Assembly: GCA_964571775.1 (NCBI GenBank)
Contig: CAZNDF010000001.1
Span: 1-26,628 of the forward strand
Source of the DNA: an uncultured Gammaproteobacteria bacterium
GTDB taxonomy: Bacteria > Patescibacteriota > Microgenomatia > UBA12405
Length of the DNA stretch: 26,628 bases
Reading direction: 5' to 3'
Shown: positions 19,171 through 26,628 of the stretch, piece after piece
Numbering within the stretch: the first letter of the stretch is position 1
Layout of the letters: the number at the start of each line of letters is the position of its first letter
The notes under the pieces: generated by a model
What the model was told of the DNA's origin: nothing
Database searches by the model: none
Seen by the model: only the letters and a program-made list of their open reading frames with translations
Position numbers and translations under genes: made by a program

Positions 19171-20301
19171 ATGAAATCAAGAAAAATTAAATCAATATTA
19201 CTTTTGTTGATAGTGGTTTTGTTGTTGGGAATTGGTGGAGTCGGTGGTTTGGTATTAGGAAGAAAATTTTTACCTAAAGATTTGTTGATTCAAAATAAAA
19301 TTGAAGTGGTAGATGAGGAATCGGTGGTGACAAGGGTGGTAGAAAAATCAACCCCGAGCGTAGTAACTGTGTCAATAAACAAAGAAGTGACAACAAACTC
19401 TTTTGATGCGTTTAAACAGCTTTTTGGGATAGCTCAACAACCAGTTGAAGTACAAAAAATAGAGAGAGATATTGGGACTGGTTTTATCATAAGTAGTGAT
19501 GGTTTGATTGTAACCAATAAGCATGTGGTGTCAGACACTTTGGCAAAATATAAAGTAGTAATTGGTAAAGATGAAACGGTAGAAGTAGTAAATATTTATC
19601 GTGATCCAATAAGTGATTTGGCAATACTAAAAGTAGACAAAACTGGCTTAACCCCGGTAGATATGGGTGATTCAGATCAACTTAAAGTTGGTCAAACAGT
19701 GATTGCAATTGGAACTGCGTTGGGGGAGTTTCGATCAACAGTAACTAAAGGAGTGGTTTCTGGTCTAGGGAGAGGAATCACTGCCGGTGACTATACAACA
19801 GGAATAGAAAAACTAGAAGATGTAATTCAAACAGATGCAGCTATAAATCCAGGAAACTCTGGCGGTCCATTGTTTGATTCTTCTGGGAAAGTGGTGGGCG
19901 TGAACGTTGCGACATCGCAAAATGGTCAGAGTATTGGTTTTGCATTACCGATAAATTTAGTTAAGTCGAGCGTAGATAATTTTCGGAAAACTGGTGAATT
20001 TGACCGACCTTACTTTGGGGTAGCTTATCAAATGATTACCAAGCAAGCAGCTTTACTTAACGAAGTGCCAGCTGGGGCTTATGTTCAGACAGTACTAAAA
20101 GACAGTCCAGCGGAAAAGGCAGGTTTAAAAATTGGAGATATTATTACTGAAATTGACGGTAAAAAATTAGCTGATACTGAGGATACTTCGATTGCTGGCA
20201 TGGTGAATCAGAAAAAAATAGGGGATAGCCTTAAAGTGAAATATTTTAGAGATAAAACCGAGACAGAAGTTGAAGTCAAATTAGAAAAGAAGAGTAGTTA
20301 G
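19171..20301 (+). CDS. htrA: HtrA/DegP-like trypsin serine protease with PDZ domain
   Basis: TM anchor; [34 protein letters not shown]; C-terminal PDZ. Confidence 0.95.
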
Positions 20302-21026
20302 TTTTTATTTTCTTCTACAGGTTGATCAAGAACAGTGAGTTCTAAAAGTAAATCGTCTAAATATCCAGCCATGATTTCATCGAGATTATTGAATGATTTT
20401 TCAATACGGTGATCTTTTATTTGATTACGAGGATAATTGTAAGTACGAATTTTATCAGCTCGGGTTGACTGGCTAATATTAGAACGACCACCAGCAACTT
20501 GAGCAGCTCTTTTTTCTTCTTCTAATTGCCAAAGCTTATTTTTGAGAAGTTCTAGGGCGATTTCTCGATTTTGTTGTTGATAACGTTCAGTACGAACATC
20601 GAACATTAAACCAGTAGGTTTATGGACTAAATGGATAGCGGTGGAAACTTTGTTGACGTTTTGGCCGCCGTTGCCGCCGGCACGACAAGCAGTAATGACG
20701 ACATCGTCCATACTGAAATTAACCTCTTTGGAATCAATTTTTGGCATAACGGCAATGGAAGCAGTAGATGTTTGAATTCGGCCACGTTTTTCGGTTTCCG
20801 GAATTCTTTGAACCCGATGAGTGCCAGCCTCATATTTTAGTTGGTTGTAAGAGTCGATACCAGATATTTGAATAACGAAACCATCAATTTGACTGACTTT
20901 CCAACCAACTTTATTAGCGTAGCGGATATACATGTTCATGAGGTCTTGGGCCCAAAGAGTGGCTTCTTGACCACCAGGACCTGGATGGAATTCCATAATA
21001 GCAATATTAGGGTTTATTGTTGGCAT
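20298..21026 (-). CDS. prfA: Peptide chain release factor 1-type protein lacking N-terminal domain 1 (242 aa)
   Basis: [22 protein letters not shown] (RF1 PxT motif), [14 protein letters not shown]; begins at the domain-2 boundary. Confidence 0.85.
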
Positions 21027-21633: not shown

Positions 21634-22884
21634 TTATTTAATTTGGCTGATTAAATCTTCAAAAGAAACTATTATTTGTTGGGAAGTTTCAAGTTTCTTT
21701 AGAGTAATTTGGTTGTTACTGGCTTCATTAGTGCCAATGATAGCCAAATAGGGAATATTCAGTGATAAAGCATATTTTATTTGTTTACCTAGTTTGTCGT
21801 TATCCGGATAAATAATACTAGAAATATTTTCTTGACGGAGTTTAGAGGTTAAATCTAGTATCTCTTTTTGTGTTTCAGTCCCAAGATTGGCGACTAAAAT
21901 TTTAGTAGTAGATTTATTTCCTTTTGGTAAAAGATCTAAAGTTTGAATAACATCAACGACCCTTTCAAAACCAAATGAGAAACCAACAGCAGGTACTTGG
22001 GGACCACCTAGAGTAGAAACTAAGTTGTCGTATCGACCACCACCTCCGATAGCTCCAATTTTTGGTTCAGTGACAGTAACTTCAAAAATAGTACCAGTGT
22101 AATAGTCGCAACCGCGGACCAAAGTTGGGTCAAAGATAAAAGCCGTTTGAGGTACACCAAGACCCTTTAAAAGATCTAAAACTTGTTTTAGATTTTCATC
22201 TGGTTGAGCTTGTTTGATATATTTAAAAATTTGATCAATTTGGCCAATAGATAGACCTTTGGAAGTGAGTTCATCTTTTACTCCATTCTCACTAATTTTG
22301 TCTAATTTATCAAGAGATTGTAGTACTGAATTTTGGCGTTCATTAATACCACTTTGAGATAAAATTGAGGATAAGACGGTGCGGCTATTAATTTTAATGA
22401 TAGCGTTTTTAAAACCCAATTTTTGAACACCTTGATAAATAACAGAAATTATTTCAGCATCAGCGATGGGGGAGCTGGTACCAAAAATATCTATATCACA
22501 TTGGACAAACTCCCGATAGCGGCCTTTTTGAGTATTTTCGGCACGCCAAACTGGTTGAATTTGATAGCGGCGAAAGGGTAAAGATAATTGATTATTATAG
22601 ATAGCTAAAACTTTGGAGGTGGGGACGGTTAAATCATAACGGAGGCCAATTTCTCGGTCGCCATTATCTTTGAAAAAGTAACCTAATTTATCATCAGTTT
22701 CACTACCATATTTACCTTTGAGGACAGAAGAATATTCTAAAGCAGGTGTTTCTAGTGGTTGAAAGCCGCAGGTTTCAAAAAGACTAGTTAAAGTATTTTT
22801 GACGTAATTTCTGACATACATGTCAGATGGTAAGAAATCTCGGAAGCCTTTTAGAGTTTGAGATTTAATATTTGATTGATTCAT
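21634..22884 (-). CDS. hisS: Histidine--tRNA ligase
   Basis: KGFRDFLP, LRYDLTVP, motif 2 WRAENTQKGRYREFVQCDID, GGGRYDNL, motif 3 GFSFGFER and anticodon domain KLGKQIKYA. Confidence 0.97.
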   Translation of the reverse strand: MNQSNIKSQTLKGFRDFLPSDMYVRNYVKNTLTSLFETCGFQPLETPALEYSSVLKGKYGSETDDKLGYFFKDNGDREIGLRYDLTVPTSKVLAIYNNQLSLPFRRYQIQPVWRAENTQKGRYREFVQCDIDIFGTSSPIADAEIISVIYQGVQKLGFKNAIIKINSRTVLSSILSQSGINERQNSVLQSLDKLDKISENGVKDELTSKGLSIGQIDQIFKYIKQAQPDENLKQVLDLLKGLGVPQTAFIFDPTLVRGCDYYTGTIFEVTVTEPKIGAIGGGGRYDNLVSTLGGPQVPAVGFSFGFERVVDVIQTLDLLPKGNKSTTKILVANLGTETQKEILDLTSKLRQENISSIIYPDNDKLGKQIKYALSLNIPYLAIIGTNEASNNQITLKKLETSQQIIVSFEDLISQIK

Positions 22885-22900
22885 AGTTGAATTTTAACAT

Positions 22901-23815
22901 TTAAATGGTTTGGGCTTGATATTTATTATTAACTGAATTAAAAAATAGTTTTTTGATTTTGGTGGAATCGACATCAGTGACTATTTGACTATTGTTTGAA
23001 CTTTTTTGTTTGATTAAAGTTTGTCCAGCAGAGTTGACTGAAACAAAATTATTTTCAGTTTTAAAAAGTTTAGGATTAATGGCGTAAGCGATGGCTAAGA
23101 CATCATACATGACCCCGCCTTTAAAGCCACCGTATTTTTTATCATATTGGTAATAGCTGATATATGAATTAACAATTTTTTTGAAATTATTGCCAATATC
23201 AGTGTTTTTGAATTGATTAAATTCGTTTGAAGTAAACATCACTTGGCGACAAATATTAATTGGGATGAGGACCTTTGGAGTGGAAAATTCTAGAATTATT
23301 TTTAGTGCCAAAGGGTCGTTGTAAACATTAAATTCAGCTTTTGAAGTGATATTGCCTTTTTGGTTAAAAACGCCACCAAGAATGATTATTTGATTAATTT
23401 TAGAAATTAAATCAGGACGGATTATCCCTAATAAAGCTAAGTTAGTACTTGGTCCAAGACAAATAATGTCAAAACTTTTCGTTGGGTTTTGCGATAATGA
23501 ATTGATCAAGAACTGGATGGCAGATGTTTTTTGAGACTTTGTTTTTAAATTAACATCAAAACCTCCAAGACCATTAAACCCATGTGATTTAGCAAACACG
23601 GGTTTTTTATTTAATGGGAGGCTAGCACCCTGATAAACAGGGATATTAGAATTCAATATTTGAAGAATGCTGAGAGTATTTTTGGTGGTATTTTTGATGT
23701 TTGAATTACCATAAGTAGTAGCAATTCCAATGATATTTAATTTTGAAGATATGGCTAAAAGGATAGCTAATGCATCGTCTACACCAGGGTCAGTATCAAT
23801 GATTATTTGTTTCAT
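22901..23815 (-). CDS. Nucleoside hydrolase (IUNH family)
   Basis: IIDTDPGVDDA, HG.NGLG, CLGPSTNLA and AEFNVYNDP. Confidence 0.93.
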   Translation of the reverse strand: MKQIIIDTDPGVDDALAILLAISSKLNIIGIATTYGNSNIKNTTKNTLSILQILNSNIPVYQGASLPLNKKPVFAKSHGFNGLGGFDVNLKTKSQKTSAIQFLINSLSQNPTKSFDIICLGPSTNLALLGIIRPDLISKINQIIILGGVFNQKGNITSKAEFNVYNDPLALKIILEFSTPKVLIPINICRQVMFTSNEFNQFKNTDIGNNFKKIVNSYISYYQYDKKYGGFKGGVMYDVLAIAYAINPKLFKTENNFVSVNSAGQTLIKQKSSNNSQIVTDVDSTKIKKLFFNSVNNKYQAQTI

Positions 23816-23817
23816 AA

Positions 23818-25329
23818 TTAGTAGGATATTGAAGAGATATCTGTTGGTTTTTTAATTAATAAAGTTTTAAAACCTAGATCAGCGGCAGGTTGAATATCGG
23901 TATCTTGTTGATCTCCAATTGAGGTGATATTTTGCGGTAGGTAAAGTCTAGAAATTTTTTTAAAGATTTCTTTTTTAAATTGAAAATCTTCACCTGAATA
24001 AATAGTTTCAAACTTATCTTTGATTCCTAAATAACTAATCACTTGATTAATCCAAATCATAGGAGAAGAGGATAGAAGAATTAATTTAAATTGTGGAGGG
24101 ATATTCAAGATAGCTTCGATTGATTTTTGATAGTCTTTAACTATATCTCTGGGATTAATATTCCAGACATTATTAAAATAATCATTTCGACTAATCTGAT
24201 ACCTATTAGATAAAAATTGACTAGCGCCGATCGGATCAGAAATAGCCTGTTTAAATATTTCTATGGCTTGATTCGTGGAAATATTTTCTTTTTGGCAAAT
24301 AAAATTAATTATATTTTGGTTAACAGTAGATTCTAAAGTTGATCCAGAATATCCGTTATTTTTACCATCGAGTTGGTATAAAGTTCCGTCCATGTCAAAA
24401 ATCATTACTTGTCGTGTCGCTTCTGATTCTACAATTTGAGAACATTGGTCTAAGTAATCAGTCACGTTAAATTTTATATTTACAGGGATATTCCGTTTTC
24501 GACTGTATGGAAGGGGAAAGCCACGATTTATTAGATCTTTAAAAGTTATTTTTCTACCAAGAATGTTTTCCCAGTTTAAGACTAGTTCTTTTTGAGCCTT
24601 AATTAAATTAAGACTGATTCCAAAAAGGTTTTGGTCGTCAAGGCTAGCTGATTCACCATCGCTCCATGGGTAGATATAAGGCTCGGATAAAGCAACTCGG
24701 TTGGACTTACTAATATTTACGACTCGTCCACCGAGAAAACTGATGTCTCGGAGATCAATCCAATCCATAAGATTAGTAACCGGTTCAAGATCACCAATAA
24801 AACCTACAGACTCAATATTTTCGTCTTTTATACCGATTTGCGACAAGAGGTTTTTGGCGGCTTTAATAGTCCCGCCAGTAAATAATCCATCATCAGCTAA
24901 AATTATTTTTCTTTTTTCAATATCAGGAATTTGGCTAGCGATTTTTTCTAGTTGTATTCTAAAGTCAGAAAATCCTTGACGAGGGATTTTGACCCCATCA
25001 GCTTTTCGGCTAATACCAAAACGAAAGAAACGGTCTTGATATTTTGAGTCAGTTTCAATTTGAGATAAAAGACATCTGTCTAAACAGATACAAATGCAAT
25101 CATTATCTTGTGATAATTTATTTATAATTTGTTTTTCGAGAGCTTGATTAATGTCGTCTTCTGAGTAAGCTCTAACTTCAATTTTTTCTACTGGTTGAAG
25201 ATTTTGTCGAAAAATATCAACAACTGATTCAAAATAGTCATTAGCTATTTTTTGGGGAAAATTGCCGATTTTATTTTGAATACCAATAGTATCTTGGGTA
25301 ATAACATAATTTTGTTTTTCTTGATTCAT
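23818..25329 (-). CDS. Type I phosphoribosyltransferase-like domain fused to a HAD-family hydrolase (503 aa)
   Basis: PRPP loop IILADDGLFTGGT; HAD motif I FDMDGTLY, II LLSSS, IV IGDQQDTD. Start moved to ATG 25329 because the upstream extension overlaps a terminator. Confidence 0.75.
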   Translation of the reverse strand: MNQEKQNYVITQDTIGIQNKIGNFPQKIANDYFESVVDIFRQNLQPVEKIEVRAYSEDDINQALEKQIINKLSQDNDCICICLDRCLLSQIETDSKYQDRFFRFGISRKADGVKIPRQGFSDFRIQLEKIASQIPDIEKRKIILADDGLFTGGTIKAAKNLLSQIGIKDENIESVGFIGDLEPVTNLMDWIDLRDISFLGGRVVNISKSNRVALSEPYIYPWSDGESASLDDQNLFGISLNLIKAQKELVLNWENILGRKITFKDLINRGFPLPYSRKRNIPVNIKFNVTDYLDQCSQIVESEATRQVMIFDMDGTLYQLDGKNNGYSGSTLESTVNQNIINFICQKENISTNQAIEIFKQAISDPIGASQFLSNRYQISRNDYFNNVWNINPRDIVKDYQKSIEAILNIPPQFKLILLSSSPMIWINQVISYLGIKDKFETIYSGEDFQFKKEIFKKISRLYLPQNITSIGDQQDTDIQPAADLGFKTLLIKKPTDISSISY

Positions 25330-25339
25330 AGTTTTTATT

Positions 25340-25418
25340 AAAAAATAAATCCCCGCAGGGAAGCGGGGATTGATTAATAATAAAAAGATTTTCAGGCGGC
25401 CAAAAACCCCGCGGTTTT
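25340..25418 (-). promoter_or_regulatory. Putative transcription attenuator 2 (protector, antiterminator, terminator)
   Basis: Terminator AATCCCCGC-ttccct-GCGGGGATT-TATTTTTT (25340-25371). Upstream GCGGGG (25407-25412) can pair with CCCCGC. AAAACC-gcgg-GGTTTT hairpin sequesters it. Confidence 0.6.
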
Positions 25419-25469
25419 GACAGCCACGGTATGGCAATGGTTTTTAATAAATTTAATTTTATTTTTCAT
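25392..25469 (-). CDS. Putative leader peptide 2, MKNKIKFIKNHCHTVAVKTAGFLAA (25 aa)
   Basis: Translated manually; His-Cys-His at codons 11-13; overlaps the antiterminator segment. Confidence 0.5.
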   Translation of the reverse strand: MKNKIKFIKNHCHTVAVKTAGFLAA

Positions 25470-25510
25470 ATTTTTTGGGTTGCCATCATTAAAATCATGA
25501 TGGACTTATG

Positions 25511-25585
25511 GGTGGTATATCGGACTTGAACCGACAACCTCAGCTTTCACAGAGCTGCGCTCTAACCAATTGAGCTAATACCACC
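25511..25585 (-). tRNA. tRNA-His(GUG), copy without encoded CCA
   Basis: Cloverleaf with encoded G-1 opposite C73, anticodon stem CAGCT/AGCTG, loop CTGTGAA and T-loop GGTTCAAGTCC. Confidence 0.95.
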
Positions 25586-25617
25586 AGGTAAGTTTGCTAA
25601 AGCAAATTAAAGTAAGA

Positions 25618-25650
25618 GAAATATGATTCAAAGAATTTGAATTATATTTC
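25618..25650. repeat. 15-bp AT-rich inverted repeat upstream of tRNA-His
   Basis: GAAATATGATTCAAA-gaa-TTTGAATTATATTTC; 14/15 Watson-Crick pairs. Confidence 0.7.
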
Positions 25651-25673
25651 ATTTTAAAGTGCTCCTAGTCCTT

Positions 25674-25741
25674 AAAAAAACAAAAAACCCGCCAGTTGGC
25701 GGGGTCAAGATACGTTGAAATCCACCAACTTAAAAGTTAGT
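25674..25741 (-). promoter_or_regulatory. Putative histidine-responsive transcription attenuator 1
   Basis: Minus strand: protector CTAACT-ttta-AGTTGG; antiterminator GTTGGTGG (25722-25729) with CCGCCAAC (25695-25702); terminator CCCGCC-aact-GGCGGG-TTTTTTGTTTTTTT. Confidence 0.8.
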
Positions 25742-25777
25742 GTGATGATGACTTGAACGTAATGTTTTGGTAAACAT
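25730..25777 (-). CDS. His leader peptide 1, MFTKTLRSSHHHTNF (15 aa)
   Basis: ATG TTT ACC AAA ACA TTA CGT TCA AGT CAT CAT CAC ACT AAC TTT TAA, 6 nt downstream of a -10 box and abutting the attenuator. Confidence 0.8.
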   Translation of the reverse strand: MFTKTLRSSHHHTNF

Positions 25778-25783
25778 ACTTGT

Positions 25784-25811
25784 ATTTTACTGAGGAAACA
25801 GGAAATGTCAA
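25784..25811 (-). promoter_or_regulatory. Sigma70 promoter, TTGACA-16-TAAAAT, for the His leader
   Basis: TTGACA = reverse complement of 25806-25811; TAAAAT = reverse complement of 25784-25789. Confidence 0.75.
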
Positions 25812-26543: not shown

Positions 26544-26621
26544 TGGGGTGGTATATCGGACTTGAACCGACAACCTCAGCTTTCACAGAGCTGCGCTCTA
26601 ACCAATTGAGCTAATACCACC
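26544..26621 (-). tRNA. tRNA-His(GUG), copy with encoded CCA
   Basis: Identical body to 25511-25585; ends ...ATACCACC-CCA. Confidence 0.95.
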
Positions 26622-26628
26622 ATGAGGA

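Follow-up and report, generated by a model that had tools for sequence, protein, structure and literature searches.

Proteobacterial operons for biosynthesis are the textbook setting of transcription attenuation by leader peptides. The hisL attenuator found in E. coli and Salmonella (RF00514) combines a short open reading frame (ORF) that contains His codons with an intrinsic terminator and alternative pairings, and the position of the ribosome decides the outcome; the element described here shares this logic. Attenuators also precede synthetase genes, namely pheM-pheST of gamma-proteobacteria and trpS and leuS of Streptomyces (PMC1262725), and comparative genomics in bacilli has predicted His leader peptides upstream of hisZ and of a hisS paralogue (Naville and Gautheret 2010, PMC2965389). 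Here we analysed a DNA window of 26,628 nucleotides (nt), which is the entire contig CAZNDF010000001.1 of a 0.66-Mb, 82%-complete assembly (GCA_964571775.1; hereafter G000) placed in the Microgenomatia of the Patescibacteriota. On its minus strand, which carries all features described below, a short ORF with two His codons (leader 2) lies between a tRNA-His gene and the histidyl-tRNA synthetase gene hisS. We consider it highly probable that leader 2 is a ribosome-mediated leader-peptide transcription attenuator that senses charged tRNA-His, the second of two in series, and that the transcription unit runs in the order promoter, leader 1, terminator 1, tRNA-His, leader 2, terminator 2, PRTase-HAD fusion gene, nucleoside hydrolase gene and hisS. 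This reading is built on the combination of an ORF with an invariant His-x-His, a terminator, a complement of the terminator 5′ arm inside the ORF, a hairpin around the His codons and a constant linkage to hisS.

The leader 2 ORF (MKNKIKFIKNHCHTVAVKTAGFLAA*; 25 codons and TGA at 25469-25392, with the stop codon at 25394-25392) starts 40 nt past the 3′ end of the tRNA-His gene (GTG; 25584-25510; ARAGORN, Rfam tRNA 69 bits), in the same orientation. Its sensor codons CAT-TGC-CAT (His-Cys-His) occupy 25439-25431, and the hexamer GCGGGG lies further along the ORF at 25412-25407. Past the stop codon, a terminator scan detected the intrinsic terminator 2 (25340-25371). Its stem AAUCCCCGC/GCGGGGAUU at 25371-25348 comprises 9 base pairs, 6 of them G-C, with a 6-nt loop, and its U-run UAUUUUUU reaches 25340, leaving 10 nt before the ATG of the PRTase-HAD gene. 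An initial annotation of the sequence had described this layout, with an ORF about 40 nt after the tRNA that overlaps GCGGGG and a terminator ending 10 nt before the PRTase-HAD start, and it proved accurate to the base. The 180 nt after tRNA-His fold at z = -4.1, and none of 200 shuffled sequences folded as well. On both strands of the window GCGGGG occurs 9 times against 3.0 expected (shuffle mean), and 3 of the 9 copies fall inside a 62-nt element: one in the leader ORF, one in the terminator 3′ arm and one, as CCCCGC, in the terminator 5′ arm. A rough estimate from the shuffle mean puts the chance of finding GCGGGG in the 100 nt upstream at ~0.006.

Using the 171-nt element as a blastn query against 38 genomes of the genus, whose sizes range from 0.4 to 1.3 Mb, leader 2 was found in 12, the relatives being 81-98% identical. 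A metagenome pattern search, which specified parts of the stems only and left the His codons free, returned 18 further copies and 4 chance matches in GC-rich DNA. Leader DNA was the better probe, the PRTase-HAD protein as query having recovered two relatives only; a loose pattern scan of the genome contigs yielded nearly all chance matches in GC-rich genomes, with G031 as the only true recovery. The alignment built from the 12 genomes and 18 metagenome contigs (A2) contains 26 distinct sequences. In 25 of the 26, an ATG opens a frame of 24-26 codons that is closed by TGA, TAA or TAG at the same aligned position. Summed across the ORFs, the two other frames contain 51 and 49 stops and the leader frame none, and length changes involve whole codons within the ORF and 1-2 nt past the stop codon. 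Both His codons are kept in 26/26 sequences, within a fixed N-H-x-H-T-V in which x is Cys (TGC, TGT), Arg (CGA, CGC) or Gln (CAA), each variant being one or two steps away from a His codon. This variation does not support sensing of Cys, which the initial annotation had considered alongside His and which was rejected; judged from the alignment, the conserved feature is the pair of His codons, and Cys is a drifted position without signal.

Across the 26 sequences the stem of terminator 2 is invariant and 99.6% paired. The RNAalifold consensus contains, in addition, a longer hairpin built around the His codons. In this hairpin segment 1 (25424-25445), consisting of AAAAACC (25445-25439) and CCGUGG (25429-25424) on either side of the codons, pairs with CCGCGG and GGUUUUU of segment 2 (25402-25414); scored together with the terminator, 96.8% of cells are paired. 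The longer hairpin accounts for the invariant third positions of the codons AAC, ACC and GTG in an AT-rich genome. Segment 2 has a second potential partner in the terminator 5′ arm (segment 3), and in this antiterminator, formed by GCGGGG and UUU with AAAUCCCCGC, 98.3% of cells are paired in columns that are nearly all invariant. The initial annotation had proposed a smaller protector, the local hairpin AAAACC-GCGG-GGUUUU, which with its outer stem (25396-25427) is indeed the minimum-energy fold in G000. As the main protector it was downgraded, because its 5′ arm becomes AACACC, AUUACC, AAUACC or AAAUCC in relatives with no compensation; only 83% of the cells of its helix are paired across relatives, and the longer hairpin is thus the better conserved of the two.

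The competition between these structures was modelled by constrained folding of the nascent RNA, ended after segment 3, for the 12 genomes. When the second His codon was placed in the ribosomal A site, the antiterminator was the minimum-energy fold in 12/12 genomes, consistent with the alternative pairing of GCGGGG and the terminator 5′ arm that had been suggested at the outset. When the ribosome was placed at the stop codon, the terminator 5′ arm was free in 12/12 genomes, and with no ribosome the longer hairpin formed and the 5′ arm was free in 7/12. These predicted states correspond to a model in which ample His-tRNA would allow the ribosome to reach the stop codon and cover segment 2, so that segments 3 and 4 would form the terminator and transcription would end at ~25340. 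If the ORF were not translated, segment 1 would pair with segment 2 and the terminator would form too. If His-tRNA were scarce, the ribosome would stall at the CAT codons and melt the segment 1:2 pairing, and the freed segment 2 would pair with segment 3 ahead of the synthesis of segment 4, allowing polymerase to read into the downstream genes towards hisS.

The conserved longer hairpin displays both CAU codons in an internal loop of 9 nt, which also invites an RNA-only explanation: the ORF would be untranslated, and either its His codons would bind uncharged tRNA-His in the manner of a T-box or the RNA would serve as a HisRS operator like that of E. coli thrS. Many relatives have a nearby UGGG that could pair with the CCCA 3′ end of the tRNA, and a Shine-Dalgarno sequence is missing. 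In G000, G015 and G013, however, UGGC replaces UGGG, and the element is only ~110 nt long, without an equivalent of Stem I. A search of the region with Rfam returned the tRNA alone, with no match to T-box (RF00230), His_leader (RF00514) or any other model at the gathering score or up to E = 10, and sub-threshold matches (Phe_leader, rnk leader and others) reflect the terminator only. An RNA-only switch also leaves unexplained the open frame, the whole-codon length changes and the fixed stop position, and the homologous leader 1 is a textbook peptide attenuator. T-box-like sensing by leader 2 was therefore rejected, and an RNA-only switch of either kind is very unlikely.

The ORF could conversely be a small functional peptide gene (NHxHTV...GFLxA) closed by an ordinary terminator, and both the core and the C-terminus of the peptide are conserved. 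The conserved residues nevertheless coincide with the RNA pairing segments, synonymous sites included, while the N-terminal half (MKNKIKFIKN, MLNKYININ, MNYIKKIFN, MTNFCLTKN and others) and codons 15-19 drift freely. In addition, the 5′ half is common to a 15-codon leader that ends just past its His codons, and the linkage of the ORF to hisS and tRNA-His is constant. We regard a peptide gene as extremely improbable.

The 15-codon leader in question is of the type found upstream of tRNA-His in the same locus (25688-25811), where a promoter (25811-25784), the leader 1 ORF (MFTKTLRSSHHHTNF*; 15 codons, 25777-25730) and terminator 1 (25703-25688) precede the tRNA. This type-1 arrangement of promoter, 15-codon ORF and terminator is present upstream of tRNA-His in 10/10 testable genomes that have leader 2. 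Its His motif is HHH, or HYH or HHY in two relatives. The type-1 terminator is CCCGCCAAC/GGCGGG, and GUUGGYGG has two alternative partners, CCGCCAAC in that terminator and the codons that follow the His run. Between G000 and G019, one position of a stem has changed on both sides. The two leaders of the locus have a homologous 5′ half and share the same signal and targets. They differ in that the leader 1 ORF ends 3 codons past its His codons, whereas that of leader 2 continues 12 codons further, through segment 2, and in that the GUUGGYGG antiterminator and CCCGCCAAC/GGCGGG of leader 1 have their counterpart in a CCCCGC/GCGGGG terminator in leader 2.

Their distributions differ as well, with leader 1 widespread in the family and leader 2 found in part of one genus only. 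In six other genomes of the genus, type 1 stands directly ahead of hisS, or of tRNA-His and then hisS. At least four further genera of the family also have it ahead of tRNA-His, with the peptide ending ...NHHHT(S/T)K, and in three of those genomes hisS lies further downstream. An order-wide search for the word N-H-x-H-T gave about as many matches as the control, and only the recurring N-H-H-H-T was real on inspection of the sequences. The initial annotation had noticed an H-x-H-T core in both leaders. The type-1 leader of G026 (L066) and the type-2 leader of L211 match at every position between the -35 box and the end of CAT-CGA-CAT-AC and share nothing after that until hisS, which points to one sensor with two exchangeable terminator modules. 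Comparison of the sequences further suggests that the arrangement in G005, L203 and L211 may have arisen by recombination between the two leaders, removing the tRNA-His between them, and the middle codons of leader 2 match what drift from HHH would give.

In G000, ~100 nt including a stable hairpin (25585-25687) separate terminator 1 from tRNA-His. The corresponding gap in G019 measures merely ~18 nt, which leaves no space for a separate tRNA promoter.

If both leaders attenuate, they could act as a serial AND-gate, in which two ribosome stalls on His codons would be needed for transcripts to reach the cargo genes for histidine-racemase-like, deacylase and nucleoside-salvage enzymes; such a gate would give a steep, starvation-only response above basal hisS expression. 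Between the tRNA 3′ end and the start of the second leader ORF there are 5-40 nt, so cutting of the tRNA during transcription could leave a near-leaderless mRNA on which translation of the ORF, and with it the choice made at terminator 2, would depend. In that case maturation of the tRNA would be coupled to sensing of the charging of the same tRNA. We put forward these two ideas, taken jointly, as tentative and rather unlikely.

Downstream of leader 2, hisS is present on the same strand in 12/12 genomes and in 9/9 metagenome contigs with enough downstream sequence, preceded by 0-2 variable cargo genes. In G000 the first gated gene encodes the PRTase-HAD fusion (503 amino acids, 23818-25329, ATG at 25329; Pfam), the second an inosine-uridine nucleoside hydrolase (22901-23815; Pfam IU_nuc_hydro, E = 1.7e-74), and hisS (21634-22884; Pfam) follows; the two gaps between these genes are 2 nt and 16 nt. 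The proposal of a second His-sensing leader-peptide attenuator in series, made in the initial annotation, is thus strengthened by the ORF kept in 25/26 sequences, the invariant H-x-H, the folds of 12/12 genomes and the constant presence of hisS downstream.

A strong and invariant terminator behind a tRNA gene could also be a plain constitutive terminator of the leader 1/tRNA-His transcript, with the ORF a non-regulatory by-product and the downstream genes driven from elsewhere. In G005, L203 and L211, however, the leader 2 element has its own TTGACT/TAAAAT promoter, no tRNA stands ahead of it and hisS is directly next, showing that the element is not merely the terminator of the tRNA. Several relatives have 40-150 nt from the terminator to the first gene, where a promoter could fit, whereas in G000 the 10 nt between the U-run and the PRTase-HAD ATG leave no room for a promoter of that gene and the scan found no promoter-like site between them; in G019, the ~25 nt from the U-run to the first ATG likewise contain no promoter-like site. 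A constitutive terminator would moreover have no need for the frame, start, stop position and His codons that are kept in 25/26 sequences, nor for conservation of a sequence complementary to its 5′ arm.

In favour of this explanation, hisS has a promoter-like element of its own. In 20/26 genomes of the genus, TGTTAAAAT lies 5-6 nt ahead of the hisS ATG, regardless of the upstream content and even within the end of an upstream coding gene; in G000 it occupies 22891-22899, 6 nt before the ATG, and resembles an extended -10 element. In G000 the ATG inside TGTTAAAAT is out of frame with hisS, so TGTTAAAAT is not coding there. The same 6-nt spacing to an ATG occurs at leader 1 (TAAAAT) and at the release-factor gene (TATAAT, ATG at 21026). 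By its sequence, TGTTAAAAT is probably an extended -10, and hisS probably has a basal promoter that gives a leaderless mRNA. Because of this element, attenuator 2 probably gates strictly only the cargo genes, the first genes behind it, and adds to the transcription of hisS. The initial annotation had named a constitutive tRNA terminator with an independent downstream promoter as the finding that would speak against it; of this, the terminator half is contradicted by the copies that stand alone in G005, L203 and L211, and the promoter half has a counterpart in the conserved element of hisS.

RNA evidence is also invoked for constitutive termination. In the short metatranscriptome contigs X17 and X18, which come from relatives, depth is 7-11 over the leader and 0-1 just downstream. 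The downstream genes of these relatives differ, so the drop in depth is not evidence of termination; the contigs indicate that leader 2 is probably transcribed. The lineage occurs in wastewater and digester samples. Overall, a plain constitutive terminator appears unlikely, and attenuation by the leader 2 peptide remains the preferred reading.

Several observations weigh against attenuation and temper our confidence in it. The function is read from sequence and computed folds, and the RNA evidence consists of the short contigs from relatives only. Leader 2 has only two His codons. A clear Shine-Dalgarno sequence was not seen upstream of its ATG, and ribosomes would have to load a few nucleotides past a tRNA. 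In the metagenome contig L204, a stand-alone leader (L204:127-286), ATT replaces the ATG with no alternative in-frame start; the copy may have decayed or may terminate constitutively, unless the ATT is a sequencing error. Ribosome-free RNA ending after segment 3 favours the antiterminator in G000 and four more genomes, so the protector must win kinetically there, by forming first. None of the three named structures shows compensatory changes across the 26 sequences, the paired columns being invariant, and some metagenome rows were chosen by a pattern that fixed stem letters. The lack of stem covariation arises because the terminator stem and GCGGGG columns do not vary. The comparison of relatives proposed in the initial annotation thus delivered a conserved H-x-H mini-ORF and no compensatory stem changes. 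Finally, in addition to the promoter-like element of hisS, six genomes (G021, G011, G032, G018, G034 and G030) have no leader, and their hisS starts ~35-55 nt from a divergent neighbour gene.

Between tRNA-His and the leader 2 ATG, a computed fold contains a spacer hairpin with a 7-bp stem (25483-25503). It persists in G028 through a two-sided change (A-U to G-C), and G019 and G022 lack it. A different spacer hairpin is present in other relatives; its 3′ arm AAGGAGA lies ~12 nt ahead of the ATG and is a possible sequestered ribosome-binding site.

An extra conserved module occurs between terminator 2 and the first gene in G028 (L004:185-265), G005, G013, L196, L199, L200, L207 and L213. Its two parts are a long-range pairing, AAATAGG...CCTATTT, and after it the hairpin GATCCCGAT-TTA-TCGGGAT; the module is also found before hisS in G010 and is absent from G000. 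A third terminator or another switch are candidate roles for it.

The cargo genes are of several types: PRTase-HAD with nucleoside hydrolase, M20 ArgE/DapE-type deacylases, HAD hydrolases, proteins of 237-278 amino acids with no assigned family, and a 464-amino-acid fusion with an M15 dipeptidase. In G022, G017 and G024, the 464-amino-acid fusion is the first gated gene, followed by an M15 D-Ala-D-Ala-dipeptidase-like protein (L039:1857-3837 in G022). The first 280 residues of the fusion match solved histidine racemases (PDB 9cr6, E = 4.8e-21), its scores against the NCBIfam histidine-racemase models (E = 6e-30 and 6e-26) are under the equivalog cut-offs, and a GNAT domain follows the racemase-like part. 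That a histidine-racemase homologue comes first behind the switch in three genomes gives independent support for a histidine signal, and the racemase-GNAT fusion and the M15 protein may be a salvage pair for D-His or acyl-His. Pfam matches identify M20 ArgE/DapE deacylases in the cargo position in G031 (L038:5514-6653) and G013 (L046:6655-7779); the M20-like cargo ORF of G020 (L044) was judged by the similar start of the ORF only. The 237-278-amino-acid proteins in G031, G004 and G020 have no match in Pfam or NCBIfam.

Elsewhere in the window, a second tRNA-His lies near the contig end (26544-26620, minus strand), and a 77-nt stretch there (26546-26622) is 100% identical to the stretch with the first copy. 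It is located past a divergent gene of 244 amino acids that recurs as the upstream neighbour in nearly all relatives and has a counterpart in G022 with a weak Aldose_epim match. The release-factor gene (20298-21026, minus strand) encodes only 242 amino acids and its Pfam PCRF match starts at profile position 101, so that domain 1 seems to be missing; release factors of 239-242 amino acids occur in every relative examined.

If the attenuator reading is true, the locus offers a testable case of an organism, probably unable to make histidine, in which tRNA-His, HisRS and salvage genes are adjusted according to the state of tRNA-His. In this lineage, an H-x-H sensor of two codons would then appear sufficient, a single sensor could be joined to two different terminator modules, and position behind the switch would flag candidates for histidine salvage, such as the racemase-acetyltransferase fusion and the M20 deacylases. 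A search of the open-access literature found no paper joining the Candidate Phyla Radiation, leader peptides and attenuation.

Where hisL has seven consecutive His codons, leader 2 has two, with a variable codon between them, and it shows no sequence or covariance-model similarity to hisL. While hisL gates histidine biosynthesis, leader 2 would gate hisS and salvage-type genes, and it directly follows a tRNA gene. A search of the 82%-complete genome did not find histidinol dehydrogenase, which fits an auxotroph that adjusts only charging and salvage. As in the pheM-pheST, trpS and leuS attenuators, the regulatory codons specify the amino acid that the controlled synthetase uses; the amino acid, lineage and sequence are different, and here 0-2 cargo genes come first and hisS keeps a promoter-like element. 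The predictions in bacilli (PMC2965389) likewise involve a short His-codon ORF and a premature terminator ahead of a hisS-family gene, but in an unrelated lineage where the leader precedes paralogues and the main hisS is under T-box control, whereas leader 2 stands ahead of the only hisS that the query found, and a further attenuator accompanies it upstream of tRNA-His. The T-box of Firmicutes hisS has the same role, raising HisRS through antitermination in response to uncharged tRNA-His, yet it senses the tRNA directly via Stem I and the T-box bulge, features with no counterpart in leader 2. Set against these systems, what is new here is the sequence family, the lineage, the minimal H-x-H sensor in an internal loop, the site a few nucleotides past a tRNA gene and the arrangement in series with leader 1.

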